Below, piece by piece: positions 2,336 through 51,413 of a stretch of 51,413 nucleotides of DNA (positions within the stretch are counted from its first letter, which is position 1; every line of letters begins with the position of its first letter). Made by a program: the position numbers and the translations under genes. Under the pieces are notes generated by a model. That model did not search any database, had not been told where the DNA came from, and saw only the letters and a program-made list of their open reading frames with translations. The DNA comes from a virus (lineage: Duplodnaviria; Heunggongvirae; Uroviricota; Caudoviricetes): IMG/VR virus record IMGVR_UViG_2563366798_000003, positions 1-51,413 of that record; one strand, given 5' to 3'.

Positions 2336-3088
2336 TCACACTTCGAATGCCAGTTGAGGGGTAAAGACGTCCCGTTCAGCGTTGTAATTAAGTGAACTGG
2401 CACTGTTGAATGATTCAATGCGTTCCACAAGAACTTGCGTACGGGTTTCTTTACTTGCGGGAGCATATGGCGAACCTACCCAGGATTTGTCGATGCCTAT
2501 ATTTCTTGCGACGTTCGTGCTGTCTGCAGACGAAAGCGGTACATGAGTAAAAATGTCTTTATTTAACATCCGTAACCCATGAATCTTGGTGATTGGGTAG
2601 CCGTACTGATCTACAACATGACGTATAAGATCGCGTAGTTTAGCCCGACACGCTCTCGGTCGTTTTGCATCGTATTCCCCCATCGAGCCGATGCAGACGC
2701 GGGGAAACTCATGGCACAGACGAATAAATCGCTCATCCGGTTCGTTCATGTGCCACACCGGAGCACCAATAAATTTACCGTGAGGCCATGCCGCAATCAG
2801 GGCGTCATTCTCTTCACTGGTTCCGCCGATAACATCCGGGATAACCGCGAATGAGAAACGAGGGTGATTACCCCAGCGTTCAACAAATCTGTAATATTCA
2901 TTCCAGTCTATGGCCTTGTTTTTTGTCCAGAATGTGAATGCACCATTATCAAGAGCAAATGATTGGGTGACTTCGGAAGCCAGATCAATCTGAGCTGGAT
3001 TAGCAAAACTGATGAATGCGTGTCTGCCTTTCCAGGCTTTCAACGCACAGGTATCGGGAGTTATTGGACCACCGTGAAAATGAATCAT
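2336..3088 (-). CDS. hypothetical protein (250 aa); weak resemblance to the tRNA-guanine transglycosylase/DpdA D-x-G-G-F motif
   Basis: Long ORF with start overlapping the stop of the upstream micro-ORF (ATGA); contains LDNGAF motif reminiscent of TGT DSGGFQ; no confident family assignment. Confidence 0.7.
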   Translation of the reverse strand: MIHFHGGPITPDTCALKAWKGRHAFISFANPAQIDLASEVTQSFALDNGAFTFWTKNKAIDWNEYYRFVERWGNHPRFSFAVIPDVIGGTSEENDALIAAWPHGKFIGAPVWHMNEPDERFIRLCHEFPRVCIGSMGEYDAKRPRACRAKLRDLIRHVVDQYGYPITKIHGLRMLNKDIFTHVPLSSADSTNVARNIGIDKSWVGSPYAPASKETRTQVLVERIESFNSASSLNYNAERDVFTPQLAFEV

Positions 3089-3243
3089 ACACTCTCCCGT
3101 TTATTATTTATCTCCTCAGCCAGCCGCTGGGCTTTCAGCGGATTTCGGATAACAGAAAGGCCGGGAAATACCCAGCCTCGCTTTGTAACGGAGTAGACGA
3201 AAGTGATCGCGCCTACCCGGATATTATCGTGAGGATGCTTCAT
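3085..3243 (-). CDS. small protein (52 aa), translationally coupled between exo and the 250-aa gene
   Basis: ATG overlaps the exo stop (ATGA) and its stop overlaps the ATG of the next gene (ATGA); a divergent second copy lies at 51059-51154. Confidence 0.4.
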
Positions 3244-3920
3244 TGCCATTGCTCCCCATATACAAAACCAATTTCAGCCAGTGCCTCGTCCATTTTTTCG
3301 ATGAACTCCGGCACCATCTCGTCAAAACTCGCCATGTACTTTTCATTCCGCTCAACCACGACATAATGCAGGCCTTCACGCTTCATGCGCGGGTCATAGT
3401 TGGCAAAGTACCAGGCATCTTTTCGCGTCACCCACATGCTGTACTGCACCTGGGCCATGTAAGCCGATTTTATTGCCTCGAAACCACCGAGCCGGAATTT
3501 CATGAAATCCCGGGAGGTAAACGGGCATTTCAGTTCAAGGCCGTTGCCGTCACTGCATAAACCATCGGGAGAGCAGGCGGTGCGCATACTTTCGTCGCGA
3601 TAGATGATCGGGGATTCAGTAACATTCACGCCGGAAGTGAACTCAAAGAGGGCTCTGGCGTCGTTCTCGTACTGTTTTCCCCAGGCCAGCGCCTTAGCGT
3701 TAACTTCCGGAGCCACACCGGTGCAAACCTCGGCAAGCAGGGTGTGGAAGTAGGACATTTTCATGTCAGGCCATTTCTTTCCGGAGCGGGGTTTTGCTAT
3801 CACATTGTGAACTTCTGAAGCGGTGATGACGCCGAGCCGTAATTTGTGCCACGCATCATCCCCCTGTTCGACAGCTCTCACGTCGATCCCGGTACGCTGC
3901 AGGATAATGTCCGGTGTCAT
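3240..3920 (-). CDS. exo: lambda-type exonuclease (Red alpha)
   Basis: 226-aa ORF matching the lambda Exo sequence from memory almost residue for residue ([50 protein letters not shown]...). Confidence 0.95.
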
Positions 3921-4702
3921 GCAGCCACCTTCTGTTCAGAGGCTTTCTGTTTCAGGAATCCAAGAGCTTTCATTGCTTCTGCCTGTGTCAGTTCTGACGA
4001 TGCGCGAATGTCGCGGCGAAATATCTGGGAACAGAGTGGCAATAAGTCGTCATCCCATGTTTTATCCAGGGCGATCAGCAGAGTGTTAATCTCCTGCATG
4101 GTTTCATCGTTAACCGGAGTGATGTCGCGTTCCGGCTGGCGTTCTGCAGTGTATGCAGTATTTTCGACAATGCGCTCGGCTTCATCCTTGTCATAGATAC
4201 CAGCAAATCCGAAGGCCAGACGGGCACACTGAATCATGGCTTTATGCCGTAACATTCGTTTGGGATGCGACTGCCACGGCCCCGTGATTTCTCTGCCTTC
4301 GCGAGTTTTGAATGGTTCGCGGCGGCATTCATCCATCCATTCGGTAACGCAGATCGGATGATTACGGTCCTTGCGGTAAATCCGGCATGTACAGGATTCA
4401 TTGTCCTGTTCAAAGTCCATGCCGTCAAACTGCTGGTTTTCGTTGATGATGCGGGACCAGCCATCAACGCCCACCACCGGAACGATGCCGTTCTGCTTAT
4501 CAGGGAAGGCGTAAATTTCTTTCGTCCACGGATTAAGGCCGTATTGGTTGGCGACGATCAGCAATGCGATGAACTGCGCATCGCTGGCATCGCCTTTAAA
4601 TGCTGTCTGGCGAAGAGTGGTGATCAGTTCCTGTGGGTCGACAGAATCCATGCCGACACGTTCAGCCAGCTTCCCTGCCAGCGTTGCGAGTGCTGTACTC
4701 AT
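3917..4702 (-). CDS. bet: single-strand annealing protein Bet (Red beta)
   Basis: 261-aa ORF matching lambda Bet ([69 protein letters not shown]...); overlaps exo start by 4 nt. Confidence 0.95.
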
Positions 4703-4707
4703 CCGTT

Positions 4708-5004
4708 TTATACCTCTGAATCAATATCAACCTGATGGTGAGCAATGGTTTCAACCATGTACCGGATGTGTTCTGCCATGCGCTCCTGAAACTCAACATC
4801 GTCATCAAACGCACGGGTAATGGCTTTTTTGCTGGCCCCGTGGCGTTGCAAATGATCGATGCATAGCGATTCAAACAGGTGCTGGGGCAGGCCTTTTTCC
4901 ATGTCGTCTGCCAGTTCTGCCTCTTTCTCTTCACGGGCGATCTGCTGGTAGTGACGCGCCCAGCTTTGAGCCTCAAGACGATCCTGAATGTAATAAGCGT
5001 TCAT
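4708..5004 (-). CDS. gam: RecBCD inhibitor Gam (short GamS-length form)
   Basis: 98-aa ORF matching the C-terminal 98 residues of lambda Gam; AGGAG Shine-Dalgarno 7 nt upstream; in-frame stop at 5059-5061 excludes the long form. Confidence 0.9.
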
Positions 5005-5762: not shown

Positions 5763-6716
5763 TTATTCGAATGGAAGATCTATTTGCCTTTGAGGATTCA
5801 ACTGTTTTTTTACATGCTCAATTTCGAATATGGTTTTTATGGCATCTCCGATCATATATTGAGTTACTTTTAAATCTACAAGTAACATATCACCTTTAGA
5901 AAAATTTAAGGTGTTGTTATCAATATCGCTGATGAATTTCTGGTCTTTTATTTCAGCCAAAAAGCTACTGGCACCATCAGAAAACCGCCACCGGCTTCCT
6001 TCATTGAAGGAAATATTTTTAATTTGAAGGGCTTTCTCTACTGTGTACTCTGAAATTATTGATTCTGCTGGTAGATTGACTTTGAAATAATGTGCTTCTT
6101 GCTTGTTGATCGTCATGAATGTCAAACCATCATCGACAGTAGAGGCAAAGCTGTCAATGCCTTCCTGCTCTAATGGCTTACTTATAACTTCTTGTAATGA
6201 AGAGCGAAGTTTAATATTTTTATAAAGTTCAATAACGTTACTGTCGTAGATCTCGCTTTCGTCATCAACAAAGACTTCGATGTTGCTATCAGGCAAATTG
6301 TGTAATTTTTTTATTTTCCTTGGACCTATCCATTTTATCAGTTGAATTAGGCCTTTGCATATTTTTTCTTTAGAACCAGGACAGAGTCCAATAAAAGCAA
6401 TCAAATTCGCAGCGGCTGTTGCTGAATCGCCGGATAAAAAATCAACAGCCTGTTTGAACCAAGATGTAGATGAGGCAACCAGATCTATTCCAAATGAGCC
6501 AGCTTTAAATGATGCATTGACTTTTACAGAAACAACAGTCTTGTTTCCGTAGAGAGTTTTACCGGCTTCCTCTAATGCATCTGATAGTGATAGAAGGGCA
6601 GGAGCAAGGTCTCGCACGTTCATTTCATGCGTTTCCAGTGCCGGACCGTCGTATACTATCCTGAACTTCATATCATTGGTTTCCGAATTGTTGCCCGCAT
6701 CCATTATGGCATTCAC
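5763..6716 (-). CDS. hypothetical protein (317 aa) in the lysogenic rex slot between cI and pL
   Basis: Long AT-rich ORF on the cI strand, directly downstream of cI and followed by a terminator; no recognisable domain; start ambiguous (ATG at 6716 or 6704). Confidence 0.75.
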   Translation of the reverse strand: MNAIMDAGNNSETNDMKFRIVYDGPALETHEMNVRDLAPALLSLSDALEEAGKTLYGNKTVVSVKVNASFKAGSFGIDLVASSTSWFKQAVDFLSGDSATAAANLIAFIGLCPGSKEKICKGLIQLIKWIGPRKIKKLHNLPDSNIEVFVDDESEIYDSNVIELYKNIKLRSSLQEVISKPLEQEGIDSFASTVDDGLTFMTINKQEAHYFKVNLPAESIISEYTVEKALQIKNISFNEGSRWRFSDGASSFLAEIKDQKFISDIDNNTLNFSKGDMLLVDLKVTQYMIGDAIKTIFEIEHVKKQLNPQRQIDLPFE

Positions 6717-9394: not shown

Positions 9395-10092
9395 AAAACA
9401 TCGCCGCACAGATGGTTAATTTTGACCGTGAGCAGATGCGCCGGATCGCCAATAACATGCCGGAACAGTACGACGAAAAGCCGCAGGTACAGCAGGTAGC
9501 GCAGATTATCAATGGTGTGTTCAGCCAGTTACTGGCAACTTTCCCGGCGAGCCTGGCTAACCGGGACCAGAATGAACTGAACGAAATCCGCCGCCAGTGG
9601 GTTCTGGCTTTCCGGGAAAATGGGATCACCACGATGGAACAGGTTAACGCAGGAATGCGCGTAGCCCGTCGGCAGAATCGACCATTCCTGCCATCACCCG
9701 GGCAGTTTGTTGCCTGGTGCCGGGAAGAAGCATCCGTTAACGCCGGGCTGCCAAACGTCAGCGAGCTGGTTGATATGGTCTATGAGTATTGTCGGAAGCG
9801 TGGCCTGTATCCGGATGCAGAGTCTTATCCGTGGAAATCAAACGCGCACTACTGGCTGGTTACCAACCTGTACCAGAACATGCGGGCCAATGCGCTTACT
9901 GATGCGGAATTACGGCGCAAGGCTGCCGATGAACTGACTTGTATGACCGCGCGAATTAACCGTGGTGAGGCGATACCTGAACCAGTAAAACAACTTCCTG
10001 TCATGGGCGGTAGACCTCTAAATCGTGCACAGGCTCTGGCGAAGATCGCAGAAATCAAAGCGAAGTTCGGACTGAAAGGAGCAACTGTATGA
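9391..10092 (+). CDS. P: replication protein P (DnaB helicase loader)
   Basis: 233 aa matching lambda P (MKNIAAQMVNFDREQMRRIANNMPEQYDEKPQVQQVAQIINGVFSQLLATFPASLANRDQNE...); ATGA overlap with O. Confidence 0.95.
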   Translation: MKNIAAQMVNFDREQMRRIANNMPEQYDEKPQVQQVAQIINGVFSQLLATFPASLANRDQNELNEIRRQWVLAFRENGITTMEQVNAGMRVARRQNRPFLPSPGQFVAWCREEASVNAGLPNVSELVDMVYEYCRKRGLYPDAESYPWKSNAHYWLVTNLYQNMRANALTDAELRRKAADELTCMTARINRGEAIPEPVKQLPVMGGRPLNRAQALAKIAEIKAKFGLKGATV

Positions 10093-10385
10093 CGGGCAAA
10101 GAGGCAATTATTCATTATCTGGAGACGCACAAGAGCTTCTGTACGCCGGACGTTGCTGCGACAACAGGTGTGACATTAACCAGCATAAATCAGGCTGCGG
10201 CAAAAATGGCGCGGGCAGGAATCCTGGTCATTGATGGTAAGGTCTGGCGAACGGTGTATTACCGGTTCGCTACTAGAGAAGAACGGGAAGGAAAGGTGAG
10301 CACGAACCTGATTTTTAAGGAGTGTCGCCAGAGTGCCGCGATGAAGCGGGTGTTGGCGGTATATGGGAGATTAGTTATTACTTGA
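10089..10385 (+). CDS. ren: Ren exclusion protein
   Basis: 98 aa matching lambda Ren (MTGKEAIIHYL...REEREGK...KECRQSAAMKRVLAVYG); overlaps P stop. Confidence 0.9.
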   Translation: MTGKEAIIHYLETHKSFCTPDVAATTGVTLTSINQAAAKMARAGILVIDGKVWRTVYYRFATREEREGKVSTNLIFKECRQSAAMKRVLAVYGRLVIT

Positions 10386-10741: not shown

Positions 10742-12289
10742 CTACTTGTCTTTTTTAATATGTTCAATCTCATCATTAAGACATTTATCTATTTTTTTTA
10801 TTAACACATTAATTTCTTCGGTGTTTTGGAGTTGAGTTGTCTTAGAAACAAAAACTCGAATAAAGAATTTAACATAGTGATAGGGTTGAAGTACATCGTT
10901 ATACTTACATAAATCATTTATTGTATACTTGCCGCCTGTTTCTTTTTTTATTATTTTAGCTTGACTTGTATCGATATCTTTAAAGTTATCTTCAATCTGA
11001 AAATCAAGAACCCATTCATCTCCTTTTAAATTATCCTCAATGATTTTGTTGATTTTCTTAGATATATTTTGTTTATATTCTTTGTATCTGTTGTCGGAAA
11101 TGTTAACATTAGAAAACGTGTGTTTTTTTTCATATATTTTTTTCCAAACATTTCTATCAACAATATCTTGAATTATAGCTTGAGAATTTTTATCTAATGT
11201 GTTTTTAAGAGTGTTTTCTAAAAACGTTTTGTCTGGGTTTTCACGATAAAAGTGTTTGATGGACTCAATGAGAGTGTTTTTAGATTTTAAAGAGACAACA
11301 TCATCAGTTTTTTTTCTAGAACACGCTTTGTTAAGCATCGCAGATAGTGCACGATTGGTCTTATGAAAATAAACTTGACTATAAAGCCCACTTCTTGCAT
11401 TGGCAAATTCTAGTATTGAATCCATACCACTTTCTTTATATGCCAGGTAAACACTATTTTCAACTTTCACAGGAATAAATGACATTAATAATCGTCCATA
11501 ATCATAAATCCCATATTTAACGCCGGAGAAGTAGCTATCTCTAAGTAGGTAGTCCATTCTGTCCGCATCTATAGGTGAAGATGATATGATTGAACATAAT
11601 AAAGGATATACATTTACTCCCTCAATGTTATTTTTAAAATCATATCTTTTATCAACAATTTTTATAATGCTTTCTGGATTAATAGCCGCTATGTTTTCTT
11701 TATAGACATCGTCGTCATTTGATTTATCTTGGGCTTCATTTTTTAATTCTTCAATAATTTCTTTAATAAAAATACATGATACTTGTTCGTGGGTTAACTT
11801 GTCATTATCACTTAAAGATATAATCTTATCGTATTGTTTATTTCCTTCAGTTTTGCATTTTTCTTTGAAATCTTTTACGGATATTGCAAAACTATCGAAT
11901 TGGTGGGCAAGTGGGCCATGCCCAACATCGTGTAACAATGCTGCAATACGTAACTCCTGTATAAGACTTGAAGGCATTTTTTTTATATCTAAATATAGAT
12001 CAATGCCCATATTTTTTCGGTCATAAATTAATGCATTCAAATTTATATTTTTCAAAATCTCATACGATAAATGCATTACACCGACAGAGTGTTCAAAGCG
12101 AGAGTGCATTGCAGAAGGAAATACTTTATATAGAAACGTGTTCTGCCTGATATCTCGTAGTCGTTGGAATAAAGGATGGTCAATTATCTTTTTTTCTAGC
12201 TTAGTTATTCGAATCACTCCATGTATGGGATCTAAAAACTTCCCCAGAAGTAAGTCTTCAAAGTTCTCAAGTTTGTTTTTGTTTGTCAT
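10742..12289 (-). CDS. HD-domain phosphohydrolase, Dgt/SAMHD1-like putative dNTP triphosphohydrolase
   Basis: 515 aa; motifs H-x-x-H (HSRFEHSVGVMH), HD (LLHDVGHGPLAH) and D-x-D-R-x-D-Y-x-x-R-D (DADRMDYLLRDSYFSG); AAGGAAAG SD; strongly AT-rich, opposite strand to flanking phage genes. Confidence 0.85.
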   Translation of the reverse strand: MTNKNKLENFEDLLLGKFLDPIHGVIRITKLEKKIIDHPLFQRLRDIRQNTFLYKVFPSAMHSRFEHSVGVMHLSYEILKNINLNALIYDRKNMGIDLYLDIKKMPSSLIQELRIAALLHDVGHGPLAHQFDSFAISVKDFKEKCKTEGNKQYDKIISLSDNDKLTHEQVSCIFIKEIIEELKNEAQDKSNDDDVYKENIAAINPESIIKIVDKRYDFKNNIEGVNVYPLLCSIISSSPIDADRMDYLLRDSYFSGVKYGIYDYGRLLMSFIPVKVENSVYLAYKESGMDSILEFANARSGLYSQVYFHKTNRALSAMLNKACSRKKTDDVVSLKSKNTLIESIKHFYRENPDKTFLENTLKNTLDKNSQAIIQDIVDRNVWKKIYEKKHTFSNVNISDNRYKEYKQNISKKINKIIEDNLKGDEWVLDFQIEDNFKDIDTSQAKIIKKETGGKYTINDLCKYNDVLQPYHYVKFFIRVFVSKTTQLQNTEEINVLIKKIDKCLNDEIEHIKKDK

Positions 12290-12648: not shown

Positions 12649-14151
12649 TTAAATTGCATCTGCAAACTCTGTGATTTTTCGCTCAAGTATGATTGATGAG
12701 TTGCTGTTGTCGATTTTTTTATTTTCATGATTACGAATAGCCAATGACTCATTAAAGTCTTTTGCGACTGCTGTCTCAATAAATTCAATTTCTGAATCAG
12801 AGTGTTTTTTAACAGCTTCTTTGATCTCATCCAGAGTAACATAGAAAAACTCTTTTCTACGATTTACAAGATTGACTCTCTTTTTATCGAAGACATCATG
12901 TAGTTTTTTTTCTAATGATGGAGCGTCCTCCGAATAAATCATGGCATGCACATCAAAAATAAAAGGAACAGATGCATCACCAAGCTCATTTACACGGTCT
13001 TGTGGATCAAGACGTCGTGTCATGCCTATTTTATAAACATTCTCCCCAAAAGAACCTATGTTCGAAATAATATAAACATGACCTTGTTTGGTTTGTTGTG
13101 CCATGGATAATGCTCTTTGATGCTTTGATTCAGCCTGCGACAAACTCTGTTCTAGTTCGGCAATGCGATTTTCGAGGCGCTGCTTCATGTCACCAGTAAC
13201 TTTTTCCATTTCCTTTCTTGCAGCTTCAATTGCTTTTTTATAACGGCGCTCTTCTGCCTCTGCGTCTTGCATGGCCTTTTCTATTTCTCGTTGTGCACGC
13301 TCCTCCTCTCTCATTTGTGCCCTTATTTCTGCCTGTTCTTCTTTTTCTTTCTGTTTTTGCTCACGATATTCATGGGTAAGCCACAACTCCTCAAGTTTTT
13401 TATTAAGGTATTTAGTATTTATATATATGTGATTTTGCTCGTTTAGTTTATTTATGGCCTCAAATGCCTTTGTGATGCGTTCTTCCATTTTAGTGATATT
13501 TTTCCACGTGCAATTACTAATTGCAGCATCACATTCATTATTAAATGCTCTAGTAGTTAGCCTAATATTTCTGTCTGTCATTTTTTTACCCTCTGCTCGA
13601 GAGCCTTCAACAGTCCATTGGGTTGTGCAATATACTGCACCAGAGTGGGTTTTATCCCGCAGCATTAATTTCTGTTCATCCCTGATGGATTTTATTTTGT
13701 TTTTAAATTGCTCTGAATCTTCAAAATTAAAATGAGGTTCGTAAAATCCTAGTTCGGCTAGTTCAACATCTTCTGAATAAATAGAAATTTGCTTTACTAG
13801 CTTATCATATATTTCTTTCTTCTCTTTATAAGTTCTTCTTAGTTCTTGGATTTGTTTATTGATACCATCCATTTTTTCAATGGTGTTTGTTAGTTCATTA
13901 TTGGCATTTTCTTTTACTTTTTGGGACTCTTCTTTTATAATGGAGCATTCTTGCTCTGTTTTCTCAATAAGCTTCTTACATTCCTCTTCCACATTAAAAT
14001 AATCTGCAAAGCGAGATTTGTATTCTTCATTTTTTTGATTGCTATCACTTAATTCTAATTGTATTTTTTTGATGCGTTTGATTGCAGCTATATATAGAAC
14101 AAGAACAACCAATAAAAATATGATTGCAAGTAATAGTGGAGTTTGAGTCAT
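12649..14151 (-). CDS. membrane-anchored coiled-coil protein with C-terminal T5orf172/GIY-YIG-like domain
   Basis: 500 aa; N-terminal hydrophobic helix (LLLAIIFLLVVLVLYIAAI), long charged coiled-coil segments, C-terminal GHVYIISN...VYKIGMT...VPFIFDVHAMIY motif; AAGGA SD. Confidence 0.8.
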   Translation of the reverse strand: MTQTPLLLAIIFLLVVLVLYIAAIKRIKKIQLELSDSNQKNEEYKSRFADYFNVEEECKKLIEKTEQECSIIKEESQKVKENANNELTNTIEKMDGINKQIQELRRTYKEKKEIYDKLVKQISIYSEDVELAELGFYEPHFNFEDSEQFKNKIKSIRDEQKLMLRDKTHSGAVYCTTQWTVEGSRAEGKKMTDRNIRLTTRAFNNECDAAISNCTWKNITKMEERITKAFEAINKLNEQNHIYINTKYLNKKLEELWLTHEYREQKQKEKEEQAEIRAQMREEERAQREIEKAMQDAEAEERRYKKAIEAARKEMEKVTGDMKQRLENRIAELEQSLSQAESKHQRALSMAQQTKQGHVYIISNIGSFGENVYKIGMTRRLDPQDRVNELGDASVPFIFDVHAMIYSEDAPSLEKKLHDVFDKKRVNLVNRRKEFFYVTLDEIKEAVKKHSDSEIEFIETAVAKDFNESLAIRNHENKKIDNSNSSIILERKITEFADAI

Positions 14152-46859: not shown

Positions 46860-47535
46860 AAAAAGGTGAGCTGTATATGCAACGGAGGAAGAAACCCCGT
46901 TGCTGGAAGCCTGGAAAAAGTATCGGATGCTGCTAAACCGTGTGGACACTTCCGTAGCACCAGATATCGAGTGGCTTATTCAACCATAATAAACAGTATG
47001 TATATCATAGGTTATTAATTGTGAGTTTTTTCGGTGTGTTATTTGTTTGTTTGATGTTATGCTTTTGCGCCCCAAAAGGTTGTTTAGATGTATTTTATCA
47101 ATTGATTTTCAATATCGTTTAATAAAGAAAAATTAAGCAAGCTGGATGTTGGTTTTTTGTTAATTGAATGGTTCTAATAATGTTTTTTTACTGTTGTTGA
47201 ATGTGACTTGATAAGAAATGCAAGTAAAAATGATACTCTTTTTATTTTAAATTCAAACGGTTGACATATATATAGCAAGAGGTTTCAGGTGCGTTGTAGT
47301 GAGTTTATGTTAATAAAAAGCATATTAATCGTTGAAAAAATGTAACTTTGAAATACGTTAGAATAAAAAACAATATACATATAATAATTTAATCTTAAAT
47401 GAAATTTATTAAAATTTGCAAACTATAATTTTGTGTATAAAAATATAAATGCACATCATCCTGATTATGATTGTGTATTTAATTGGTTGTTATTTGACTA
47501 CTATCAACTTGTTTTAATTTTATGATAGGTGCAAG

Positions 47536-48285
47536 ATGGATTATGTTTGCTCCGTAGTTTTCATCTGTCAATCATTTGATTTAATTATAAACAGGAGAGT
47601 TATCTCGTTCAAAAAAAATTCATTGTTTATTGTAAGCGACAAAATTAGAAGAGAGTTACCAGTATGCCCCTCTAAACTAAGAATTGTTGATATAGATAAG
47701 AAAACATGTTTATCCTTTTTTATCGACGTGAATAATGAGTTGCCTGGCAAATTTACTCTTGATAAGAATGGCTATATTGCTGAAGAGGAACCTCCATTAT
47801 CGCTTGTTTTTTCTCTGTTTGAAGGGATTAAAATAGCAGACTCACACTCCCTTTGGTTAAAAGAAAGACTATGTATATCCTTACTTGCCATGTTCAAAAA
47901 ACGCGAAAGTGTAAATTCATTTATACTAACAAATATAAATACATTTACCTGTAAAATTACTGGAATAATCAGTTTTAATATTGAGCGGCAATGGCATTTA
48001 AAAGATATTGCGGAATTGATTTATACGAGTGAAAGTTTAATAAAAAAAAGATTAAGGGATGAAGAAACGTCATTTACTGAAATATTGAGAGATACTAGGA
48101 TGAGGTATGCAAAAAAACTCATAACTTCAAACTCTTATTCTATCAATGTCGTAGCCCAGAAATGTGGCTATAACAGTACTTCATATTTCATATGTGCATT
48201 TAAAGATTATTATGGTGTCACGCCATCTCATTATTTTGAGAAAATAATCGGCGTCACAGATGGAATAAACAAAACAATTGACTGA
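47536..48285 (+). CDS. appY: AraC-family regulator, AppY-like
   Basis: 249 aa, strongly AT-rich, C-terminal AraC HTH; sequence and position next to ompT match my recollection of E. coli AppY. Confidence 0.75.
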
Positions 48286-48534
48286 TAATATTTATTACAA
48301 GTTGTCTACATGTTAATTATAATATTATACAGCGTGTTTTTTGATGTGATATTCTGGAACCATTAATTTGTAATTGGGTTGCTGTCGCCTATTTTATACA
48401 CACTATAATTGATGGTTTTCTATGTGATTTAGTTAATAACCTTCTGGGTTTATTTTAAGGGTTAATTGTTACATTGAAATGGCTAGTTATTCCCCGGGGC
48501 GATTTTCACCTCGGGGAAATTTTAGTTGGCGTTC

Positions 48535-49488
48535 TTAAAATGTGTACTTAAGACCAGCAGTAGTGATGAAGTTATAGTTTTCTATGCCTGCTCCATTTTT
48601 GCTGTAGTCTGAAGTGTTATTATTGTGATCATAAAGTGAAGTATTACCTTTTTTATTCGTAACCCGATTCCATGCGCCTTCAACATAAACTTTTGCGTTA
48701 GGTGTGACGTAATAACCTGCATTGACTGCAACAGAATAGTAATTTTGGTCTTTGACCTTACTGCGATAAGTGATTCTTTTTCCCGGGTCATAGTGTTCAT
48801 CGTTATCAGATGATTCCACCCAGCCGCTGTATTTAAATGTGCCACCTAGCTCAAAATCTTCATAACGATAACTTCCAGTCAAGCCAATGTAGGGCATTTT
48901 AAAACGTTGTTTGTAGCCGATTGCTCTTTCTCCATTCGGGAAGGAGCCGATATCATCTCTGAATCCCTCCTCAGAACTGTAGATATAGGAACCACCTCTG
49001 GCTGTAAAGCTATAACGGCTTTCCTGATATCCGGCCATGAGTCCCAGGCGGTAATTGGGTTCGTTGAGGAGCCAGCCTTTGATATTCAGATCAAATTCGT
49101 TGGCATAATTGAGTTGTGTATCAGGATGTCTACTTTCATCCGTCCAGGTTCCGGGGTTACTGGAATCCATCCAGTCCTGATCGACCATATTGCCACCTCG
49201 GCTGCCGAGTGTTGTCCAGCCAGCAGCCCCGATAGATATCTGAGGCATCAAATCCCAATTAATTGCACCTTTAATAATTGCAGCGTTATTGAATTTCCAG
49301 TCAAGTTGACTGACTTTTCGGCTTCCTTCTTCGGCTAGATAAACACGCTCTTTTGTTTTTCCGCTCAGAGTTCCAAGACTAATGTCCGCATTTATGTTGT
49401 CAGGAGTAAACGATAAAGTCTCGGTAGAAGCAAAAGAGTTGATCGCAATAGGGGTTGTCAGGACTATTCCCAGAAGTTTCGCCCGCAT
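48535..49488 (-). CDS. ompT: outer membrane protease OmpT (omptin)
   Basis: 317 aa matching E. coli OmpT (MRAKLLGIVLTTPIAI...TAGLKYTF). Confidence 0.95.
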   Translation of the reverse strand: MRAKLLGIVLTTPIAINSFASTETLSFTPDNINADISLGTLSGKTKERVYLAEEGSRKVSQLDWKFNNAAIIKGAINWDLMPQISIGAAGWTTLGSRGGNMVDQDWMDSSNPGTWTDESRHPDTQLNYANEFDLNIKGWLLNEPNYRLGLMAGYQESRYSFTARGGSYIYSSEEGFRDDIGSFPNGERAIGYKQRFKMPYIGLTGSYRYEDFELGGTFKYSGWVESSDNDEHYDPGKRITYRSKVKDQNYYSVAVNAGYYVTPNAKVYVEGAWNRVTNKKGNTSLYDHNNNTSDYSKNGAGIENYNFITTAGLKYTF

Positions 49489-50038
49489 AAAAGTTCTCCA
49501 TTCAATCGTTTTAATGATTGAATATGTATTTTTTATATCTAACTTAATGAGTCAATTACATATTGCTCCACTGTTTATATTTTGTTTAGTATTGAATGAT
49601 TATCACAATGCGCTATCTGTTTTTGGTTTAATTATCTGTTATTGTTTCATATTGCGGTTTTACTGTGTGGTTTTTTTATGATTTTGTGGTGCTTTTATCT
49701 ATTTAAGTGCCATGCCTTTAGAGGCATATAAGCGAAAATAGCATGAGGTTTATCCTCAATTACTATGTTTTTTAGTACAAAAAAGAGGGACAAAACTGAG
49801 ACACATAAGGCCTCACAAAGGTCTGCAAGGCTTCACATGTATTGAGATGTTAATAAAATGTAGGCTTGTAATTTTGATATAAATGGTAGATAAAACCTTT
49901 CCCCAAAATAAAAACGAACGTCAATAAAATCAAACGGTTGAATAAAGTTGATTTTGGCTAATAAAAAGACAATAAAATAATTTTTATCATTAAATATCAA
50001 TGAATTGAACTTAATGTTTTTATATACTGCTGCGCCAT

Positions 50039-50190
50039 ATGGGCTGGACTGAAGCCGCAGACCTGATTGTTAAAGGTATGGAAGGCGCAATCAACGCCAA
50101 GACCGTAACCTATGACTTCGAACGTCTGATGGAAGGCGCTAAGCTGCTGAAATGTTCAGAGTTTGGTGACGCGATCATCAAAAACATGTA
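50039..50190 (+). pseudogene. icd: 3' fragment of isocitrate dehydrogenase gene (icd C-terminal duplicate, icdC-like)
   Basis: Encodes ...[49 protein letters not shown]-stop, the Icd C-terminus, with no upstream coding continuation. Confidence 0.8.
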
Positions 50191-50214
50191 ATCACTACAT
50201 GTGTTAAATATTGT

Positions 50215-50244
50215 AACGGGCGTATAACACGCCCGTTGTTTTAT
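50215..50244 (+). terminator. rho-independent terminator downstream of icd fragment
   Basis: AACGGGCGT / ACGCCCGTT stem with ATAAC loop followed by GTTTTAT. Confidence 0.6.
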
Positions 50245-50260
50245 GTAAGTTTGCTAACGG

Positions 50261-50293
50261 TTATCAAAATTTTATCAAAATAAGTTATCAAAA
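50261..50293 (+). repeat. three direct TTATCAAAA repeats
   Basis: TTATCAAAA at 50261, 50272 and 50285; the second matches IHF-like consensus WATCAANNNNTTR. Confidence 0.5.
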
Positions 50294-50465
50294 CCTCTTA
50301 GTTGTTTGGGGTCGGTTGGTCAGTCAGATGACAGTTCTACTGCCAGGTTCCTATTAGACATTCCTCTATTTGGTGGACGCTCGTTAATATTTAGATCCGC
50401 TATGTGTCAGGTGCGGGCATTGTTATAAATGCCAATTGATATAACGTCAGCTCGTTTATCTCATC

Positions 50466-50876
50466 TTACAGAACCTCAACAACTTCAAACTCTTCCATAA
50501 TCAACTCCATATCTTCAGAAAAATGACCTTCCTGGGTGAAAAATCGTTGATGCTCTCTCTGCCAATATTCAAGGCTCAAATCGCCTTCACCTTCCTTGCG
50601 AGCTAACTCGGCAGTAACATCACAAAAACACACCAGTTGCATCGACACCAGCCTGGTCACGCATACCGGTACATCCTGGCCGTCAAGGATGATGTTATAG
50701 CTCCCAATCCTTGGGGCAAATTCTTCCTTCTGATAAGAGGCATAAGAGCCACAGGAGGCCGTTTTAATCCCTTTTTCTATAAGTGCTGCAAGCTCGTTAG
50801 CCAGTTCAGGGCTGTCGCCCATTTGCCAGGCATTCGCGTCCGGATATTTCATCTTTAGTTCATCAACCTTACCCAT
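50466..50876 (-). CDS. hypothetical protein (136 aa from internal ATG; longest ORF reaches 51026), possibly ASCH/PUA-like
   Basis: ORF 50466..51026 in track; family assignment is a guess from size and a G-x-K-T motif. Confidence 0.4.
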   Translation of the reverse strand: MGKVDELKMKYPDANAWQMGDSPELANELAALIEKGIKTASCGSYASYQKEEFAPRIGSYNIILDGQDVPVCVTRLVSMQLVCFCDVTAELARKEGEGDLSLEYWQREHQRFFTQEGHFSEDMELIMEEFEVVEVL

Positions 50877-51150
50877 TACACGTCCTTTCTGATTGTAAAT
50901 AATAGAGAAATAGCTGAGCATTAATTGTTCGAATATTAACAGTGATGCTTTCTTGCTAATATCATAGTTCGTTTTTCGCTCAAAGCGGGCTGTTTGGTTC
51001 TTTTTCATGTGGGGTGAGAAATTCAAGGAGGCGTTGAGACGTTTAAATTTTCACAACGCTACTTTGCGCCATTCTTTACCTCAATCATCATGATAACAAT
51101 CGGTTTGACGAAAGTGATCGCGCCTACGCGGATATTATCGTGAGTATGCT

Positions 51151-51413
51151 TCATCGCCATTGTTCCCCAAATACAAAACCAATTTCAGCCAATGTCTCGT
51201 CCATTTTTTCGATGAACTCCGGCAGCATCTCGTCAAAACTCGGCATGTACTTCTCATGTCAGGCTACTTATTTCCTGAACGGGGTTTTGCTATCACGTTG
51301 TGAATTTCAGAAGCGGTAATGACGCCGAGCCGTAATTTGTGGCACGCATCATCTCCCTGTTTGACAGCCCTCACGTCGATCCCGGTACGCAGCAGGATAA
51401 TGTCCGGTGCCAT
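51151..51413 (-). pseudogene. exo: second, internally deleted copy of exo (prophage remnant; continues beyond window)
   Basis: 51107-51255 aligns with 3196-3346 and 51256-51413 with 3765-3920 of the intact exo locus; about 420 bp missing at a TTCAT microhomology. Confidence 0.75.

Follow-up and report, generated by a model that had tools for sequence, protein, structure and literature searches.

A decayed exo copy beside a lambda-like prophage at icd is very probably the relic of a second, older lambdoid prophage

Introduction

DLP12 of Escherichia coli K-12, a grounded lambdoid prophage, lies at argU, keeps intD, and has the gene order intD-xisD′-exoD′-peaD′-renD′-emrE-ybcK-ybcL-ybcM and onward. 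Its exoD is a 3′ fragment of a lambda-type exo gene (equivalent to positions 3214-3519 of the DNA analyzed here) that is joined to the 3′ end of P (9781-10168; peaD). The cryptic K-12 prophage e14, whose integration in icd has been described (PMC6379469), is accompanied by a duplicated icd 3′ fragment and carries ymfD, ymfE, lit, an intact intE and xisE. The exonuclease of the lambda Red system (Exo) belongs to the YqaJ / PD-(D/E)XK family.

Here, we analyzed a 51,413-nt stretch of viral DNA, positions 1 to 51,413 of the IMG/VR record IMGVR_UViG_2563366798_000003 (hereafter, the window). It holds a lambda-like prophage with an intact exo gene, which we call prophage A, and ends on a second, decayed copy of exo, which we call exo′. 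A previous sequence-only reading of the window had attributed this copy to a neighboring prophage remnant. The remnant, termed B below, runs past the end of the window and could be followed in related contigs.

The closest parallel of exo′ is exoD of DLP12. DLP12 and remnant B are both grounded lambdoid prophages whose left end holds a truncated lambda-type exo, and both have lost the immunity and replication genes and continue with a ren fragment followed by emrE, ybcL, ybcM, ylcH and ninE. They differ in site and in detail, since DLP12 lies at argU with intD, whereas B lies at icd and keeps 19 codons of an IntE-type int. Unlike exoD, exo′ has an internal 418-bp deletion with both gene ends kept, and bet′ is joined to ren′; in addition, B has a BD-FAE alpha/beta hydrolase gene in place of ybcK and lacks ybcN. 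B therefore shows neither of the two features that identify DLP12, namely integration at argU with intD and the same deletion scars. With their different truncations and sites, exo′ and exoD are parallel decay products of related phages, with independent histories, rather than the same scar. A common alignment end-point at 51257 had made the same deletion in K-12 exoD a candidate, which was rejected because exoD runs through into the exo interior.

Compared with e14, B has the same attachment site, a duplicated icd 3′ fragment, a similar flank downstream of icd, and an int relic of IntE type. The segment 50976-51107, which corresponds to the lit-intE intergenic stretch and the intE 3′ end, is 86% identical in DNA to K-12 e14 (L013 6106-6236). 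Unlike e14, B has no ymfD, ymfE, lit, intact intE or xisE, and an ASCH-domain gene stands in their place. The only parts of B with an e14 counterpart are the icd-proximal flank, the lit-intE intergenic stretch and 57 nt of intE, and the rest of B is DLP12-like, not e14-like; B thus shares with e14 the attachment at icd with a duplicated icd 3′ end, but not the gene set. With respect to lambda Exo, both ends of exo′ are 90-95% identical in DNA to lambdoid exo genes, whereas codons ~53-193 are missing, the junction is frameshifted, and a stop stands at codon 50.

Materials and methods

The last 613 bases of the window were compared with the rest of the window by blastn. Related contigs were collected by exact look-up of the ASCH protein, which yielded short Logan contigs alone, and by exact-match searches with the junction sequence. 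They number eight: L002, L003, L004 and L005 from Logan, L008 from IMG/VR, and the metagenome contigs L009, L010 and L011. Complete E. coli genomes (5,426) were searched by megablast, and GTDB species-representative genomes were searched with an exact 40-mer across the deletion junction and scanned for the ASCH protein.

Results

Prophage A carries the intact reference copy of exo

By its gene content, prophage A is a complete lambda-like prophage, extending in the window from a lambda-type int (1-1143) through ompT (48535-49488). Next to int lies xis (1133-1369), and the element also has a CI-like repressor, O, P, a tail gene set, appY and ompT. Its exo (3240-3920, minus strand; 226 aa; Pfam YqaJ, E 3e-30), annotated as 'lambda exonuclease family protein' in matching E. 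coli records, served as the reference copy. The 3′ end of exo is overlapped by 10 nt by a DUF1317 ORF (3085-3249, minus strand; 54 aa; Pfam DUF1317, E 2e-33), and an intact bet of the RecT family (3917-4702) and an intact gam adjoining it (4708-5004) lie on the same strand as exo. The left arm of prophage A is 98% identical to lambdoid phages including Lambda_4C10, 4A7, 1W and Perceval.

Several further features of prophage A were observed. The right end of prophage A (46879-49846), comprising a tfaX-like region, appY (47536-48285) and ompT, matches that of K-12 DLP12 at 98.9% identity, and yet prophage A lies at icd, not argU. Because emrE, ybcL and ybcM are found in B, DLP12-like modules are split over two adjacent elements. 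Between ren and the nin region, a 500-aa ORF (12649-14151, minus strand) strongly matches the anti-phage defence protein PD-Lambda-1 (PADLOC E 5e-198; Pfam DUF4041 and T5orf172), and the adjoining ORF (10742-12289, minus strand) encodes a 515-aa HD-domain protein with a marginal dGTPase-like PADLOC match. In the early-left region, a 317-aa ORF (5763-6716, minus strand) matches the PADLOC candidate defence family PDC-S42 (E 3e-86) and has no Pfam domain.

The window end aligns with exo in two blocks around a 418-bp deletion

The blastn comparison revealed two ungapped blocks. In the first, 51107-51257 matched 3196-3346 (141 of 151 bases identical, 93.4%; E 5e-62), and in the second, 51251-51413 matched 3758-3920 (147 of 163, 90.2%; E 2e-60). 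The blocks are co-linear and share one strand. The third-best match of the window end within the window (51069-51104 with 28-63; E 0.026) is a weak homology between an integrase relic and the 3′ end of prophage A int.

The two blocks share seven bases, TTCTCAT in the copy and TTTTCAT at both 3340 and 3758 in the intact exo; the microhomology is therefore 7 bp, not 5. Only two TTYTCAT sites occur in exo, in the intact copy of the window and in the exo of an O157 prophage (L014) alike. Assigning the shared bases to the first block pairs 51107-51257 with 3196-3346 and 51258-51413 with 3765-3920, and exactly 418 bp of the exo interior are missing between them. The sequence-only reading was right about a two-block alignment, which has an E value of about 1e-60 for each block, and about an internal deletion; its block boundary was 2 bases off, its deletion of 'about 420' bp becomes 418 bp, and its 5-bp microhomology TTCAT has to be replaced by the heptamer.

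Four gene fragments lie in a row at the window end

The interval 51059-51413 holds four gene fragments, namely int′, DUF1317′, and the 3′ and 5′ parts of exo′, all on the minus strand. The first is a relic of an e14-type (IntE) integrase gene (51051-51106), which comprises the last 19 codons including the stop and has an internal stop. Together with the junction base 51107 (57 nt), it translates as QTDCYHDD*GKEWRKVAL*, where the C-terminus of K-12 e14 IntE reads QQTDRYHDDRGKGWSKVAL*. The segment 51059-51106, which had been included in the exo copy, accordingly belongs to the 3′ end of this integrase gene and is not exo. Homology to prophage A stops at 51106/51107, where the int relic is fused, with a microhomology of 1 nt, to the first 18 codons of DUF1317 (51107-51160).

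The exo′ 3′ fragment (51151-51257) falls in the first block and holds the last 35 codons and the stop. It ends on the deletion junction TTCTCAT (51251-51257), the counterpart of the two heptamers of intact exo. The exo′ 5′ fragment (51258-51413) in the second block holds codons 1-52, and the last three bases of the window (51411-51413) are its ATG. The described content, the exo 3′ end, the start of the overlapping micro-ORF and the exo 5′ end, was thus borne out, with 35, 18 and 52 codons, respectively.

In the 5′ fragment, TAG stands at codon 50 (51264-51266), where intact exo has Trp50, and the reading frame changes between the 5′ and 3′ parts. As 418 bp is not a multiple of 3, the frameshift together with the stop at codon 50 makes exo′ a pseudogene from which no exonuclease is possible. 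Roughly codons 53-193 are absent, and with them the nuclease catalytic core is gone; the active-site residues of lambda Exo presumably fall within this absent part. By sequence homology, exo′ belongs with the lambda-type exonuclease genes of the YqaJ family, but an uninterrupted frame of ~226 codons with a central catalytic core is not found in it.

Relative to the exo of prophage A, exo′ has diverged by 6.6-9.8%. It is slightly closer to the exo of the O157 prophage, to which its two blocks are 94.7% and 92.0% identical, than to that of prophage A. Substitutions in the 5′ fragment number 3, 3 and 10 at the first, second and third codon positions, with seven amino-acid changes in 52 codons, and those in the 3′ fragment number 4, 2 and 2. 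These counts agree with a gene that diverged while it still worked and then decayed neutrally.

An icd 3′ fragment separates the two elements

To the left of exo′, an icd 3′ fragment (50024-50191, plus strand) holds the last 55 codons of isocitrate dehydrogenase and is 94.2% identical to the K-12 pseudogene icdC. This fragment is attR of prophage A and attL of remnant B at once. Homology of the window to contigs free of prophage A begins at 50028. E. coli strain 582 carries an A-type prophage but lacks B, and its homology to the window stops at 50250. In this strain, the host gene iraM comes immediately after the A-type prophage end, which comprises J, lom, tail fibres, appY, ompT and icd′; the DNA right of ~50250, with the ASCH gene and exo′, is therefore extra and not part of prophage A. 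Directly downstream of icd, an e14-like stretch (50251-50393, plus strand) forms the left flank of B, and 50027-50393 as a whole is 82% identical to the left end of K-12 e14 (L013 2711-3090). At 50209-50280 on the minus strand, directly after the icd′ stop, a sub-threshold Rfam match to STnc150 was observed (25.6 bits against a gathering score of 60; E 0.007), which is probably the conserved icd terminator region. In K-12, a small RNA, C0293, is annotated a few hundred bases downstream of icd.

The ASCH-domain gene (50466-51026, minus strand; Pfam ASCH, E 7e-22), whose true start may lie further in, is the only intact-looking gene of remnant B within the window, and it adjoins icd in the contigs without prophage A too. 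Copies 92-96% identical occur as cargo in other prophages (L001 6001-6411, L007 10001-10489); those in P2-like prophages are ~92% identical. The copy in a P2-like prophage of E. coli strain 2547 adjoins a restriction endonuclease gene and a retron Ec67 gene, and another lies in an E. ruysiae prophage (L007), in an unrelated prophage context without exo′. From this distribution, the ASCH gene looks like a mobile moron.

The window starts on the int stop codon (1-3) and ends on the exo′ ATG, and another IMG/VR provirus contig (UViG_2513237361_000013, L008) ends at the same base. With both edges on gene boundaries, the ends are software cuts of a provirus call, and attL of prophage A is missing from the window. 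The right edge of the call, ~1.4 kb (50028-51413), is thus a different, dead element, and neither the ASCH gene nor exo′ should be counted among the genes of prophage A.

Remnant B continues past the window end and occurs without prophage A

Five of the eight related contigs (L002, L008, L009, L010 and L011) span exo′. With the window, this gives six aligned copies that are 97.4-98.8% identical and have every junction of the exo′ region and both stop codons in common. Four contigs (L002, L009, L010 and L011) read beyond the window end, where they have 38 bp of the bet 3′ end, ~66 bp resembling ren of prophage A (window 10174-10239), and then emrE, which begins ~235 bp past the window end. In L009, emrE is followed by the BD-FAE alpha/beta hydrolase gene, ybcL (PBP family), ybcM (AraC type), pieces of ylcH and ninE, and a late-promoter-like region of generic lambdoid character; the emrE-to-ninE content of B is ~90% identical to K-12 DLP12. 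The hydrolase ORF (L009 2503-3546, plus strand; 347 aa) lies on the strand opposite to emrE and replaces the DLP12 recombinase gene ybcK, with ybcN missing.

Taken together, the window, L009 and L011 give the order icd′, ASCH, int′, DUF1317′, exo′, bet′, ren′, emrE to ninE, that is, phage-derived genes in lambdoid order at a known attachment site. Loss is extensive, with int reduced to 19 codons and bet to 38 bp, and the stretch from exo′ to emrE has no xis, gam, immunity region, O or P. The sequence-only reading had proposed to look for bet and gam homologs downstream; none survive there, since the contigs beyond the window contain only the short bet 3′ end and no gam.

What precedes B varies. 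In L009, L010 and L011, B directly follows an intact 416-aa icd with mnmA, nudJ and rluE upstream, and prophage A is absent. In L002, L003 and L004, the icd′ before B is preceded by an e14-like prophage end, which carries a GIY-YIG gene in all three and, in L002, a Pin-type resolvase as well. An A-type prophage stands before B in the window and L008. Each element therefore occurs without the other, A alone in strain 582 and B alone in L009-L011, and in the window, prophage A, one icd′ copy and B follow one another in the same orientation. The proposal of an adjacent or tandem decayed lambdoid prophage was well founded, given the icd′ between the elements and the DLP12-like content past the window end. 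The tandem model, icd::A-icd′-B, can be considered proven on the left side of B only; on the right, where the model predicts a second icd′ fragment and then iraM, L009 ends past the nin region, and the part of L010 covered was 3.8 kb of a 294-kb contig.

The remnant was absent from the 5,426 complete E. coli genomes, in which only intact exo genes were hit, matching in two pieces. The 40-mer across the deletion junction had no exact match in the GTDB species-representative genomes, and the ASCH-protein scan of the same set returned only the E. ruysiae locus. The core flank mnmA-nudJ-rluE-icd of L011 (1-2800) is at most 95.1% identical to any of the complete E. coli genomes. Since the window itself holds no core gene, it is this flank of a related contig that suggests a non-coli Escherichia species or cryptic clade as the lineage carrying B.

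Exchange between the two exo copies would be rare

The two copies had also been put forward as a substrate for recombination. They are direct repeats 47.9 kb apart, prophage A encodes intact Exo, Bet and Gam, and exchange of DNA by Red-type recombinases has been shown for lambda and defective prophages (PMC3945230). A deletion between the repeats, 47.9 kb in size, would leave int-xis-...-exo′(hybrid)-ren′-emrE. Recombination over a 700-bp region of 88% identity, in which no perfect stretch exceeded 49 bp, occurred there at ~2e-6, and the longest perfect runs of the tested substrates ranged from 49 to 298 bp (PMC3945230). The exo repeats are shorter and poorer than these, with blocks of 151 and 163 bp and longest perfect runs of 29 and 23 bp. 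Given such short blocks and runs, exchange is conceivable but would be rare. Furthermore, no conversion of the window's exo′ towards prophage A was seen, and two differences private to the window's copy move away from A. A recombination substrate thus exists in principle, but a weak one (~150 bp, 90-93% identity, at most 29 bp perfect), and it is unlikely that the two copies are a working substrate that rearranges the locus. For prophage A itself, the icd repeats flanking it are the obvious excision route.

Other explanations of exo′

The high identity of all copies (97-99%) and their place between the intact-looking ASCH gene and emrE might be taken to mean that the relic is kept for a function, either as regulatory or promoter DNA controlling emrE or ASCH, or as a short peptide (residues 1-49 of Exo, or a 33-aa fusion with DUF1317). 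We consider this very unlikely, because the identity is no higher than that of the surrounding B sequence and the stops are fixed across the exo′ copies. Promoter-like and terminator-like sites over the remnant were at chance level, with none in 51050-51413, and an Rfam search over the remnant gave no match above chance. In the exo′ 3′ fragment, substitutions fall at all codon positions, although the 5′ fragment is enriched at position 3. The exo′ relic itself has no function.

That exo′ arose as a segmental duplication of prophage A's own exo region, a true paralogue that subsequently suffered deletion and decay, has hardly any probability left, even though both copies have the same orientation and the same order of DUF1317 and exo. 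The copy is present in L009, L010 and L011, where there is no prophage A, so exo′ did not originate as a copy of A's gene; the A-free configuration refutes the idea in practice. The flanks of exo′ (the IntE-type int relic, ren′ and emrE) are also unlike those of A's exo, and the divergence from A's exo, with the O157 prophage exo slightly closer, speaks against it as well. The earlier judgement that the copy is diverged and not a recent duplication therefore stands, and it can be added that the two copies were acquired separately.

Window edges that fall exactly on the exo′ ATG and the int stop might raise the suspicion of an artefact of assembly or provirus calling, for example a collapsed repeat or chimeric join, but its probability is negligible, with identical junctions in six independent assemblies (Logan, ENA and JGI metagenomes, IMG/VR) and four of them reading straight past the window end.

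Discussion

We conclude that exo′ is a dead relic that very probably derives from the recombination region of another, older lambdoid prophage, remnant B, which lies at icd immediately to the right of prophage A. B is constant while different phages precede it at icd, which suggests that prophage A arrived after B; the order in which B came first and A later is based on the wider distribution of B.

The following history would account for the present structure. Prophage B may originally have had the usual order attL(icd), int, xis, ..., DUF1317, exo, bet, gam and onward, and would have been reduced by three or more illegitimate deletions. One may have run from 19 codons before the int end to 18 codons into DUF1317. 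A second, the 418-bp deletion in exo, could have occurred by slippage or illegitimate recombination between the 7-bp TTTTCAT repeats, and a third would have left 38 bp of the bet 3′ end joined to ren. The deletions were presumably followed by point decay, including the TAG at exo codon 50 and the stop in the int relic. B has kept cargo of the DLP12 kind, namely ASCH, emrE, the alpha/beta hydrolase gene, ybcL, ybcM and part of the nin region. Later, prophage A would have integrated into the icd site on B's left end, resulting in icd::A-icd′-B. The microhomologies at the junctions point to the mechanism of the deletions, and the order of events given here is likewise a proposal drawn from the sequences.

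Remnant B is a previously uncatalogued cryptic lambdoid prophage relic of a familiar class at a hot-spot attachment site. The exo′ locus is an ordinary cryptic-prophage scar, of little consequence beyond bookkeeping and no surprise to specialists. It nevertheless provides a textbook case of prophage grounding by microhomology-mediated deletions, and it illustrates that icd is a repeatedly used attachment site, since in different strains this one relic stands behind an e14-like element, behind a lambda-like phage, or with no phage element before it.

A more speculative idea, to which we give only a slim chance, is that B is an old, vertically inherited, domesticated island in non-coli Escherichia that has converged on the outcome seen in DLP12, and that Red-mediated exchange between A's exo and exo′ could restore int-xis to it. 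Shared gene content is what hints at the domesticated-island reading. If true, the DLP12-like outcome of B would have been reached independently, with the int, recombination, immunity and replication genes lost and emrE, ybcL and ybcM kept. Relaxed Red exchange between A's exo and exo′ would then yield an int-xis-exo′-ren′-emrE layout as in DLP12, and a grounded prophage may in this way be re-equipped.
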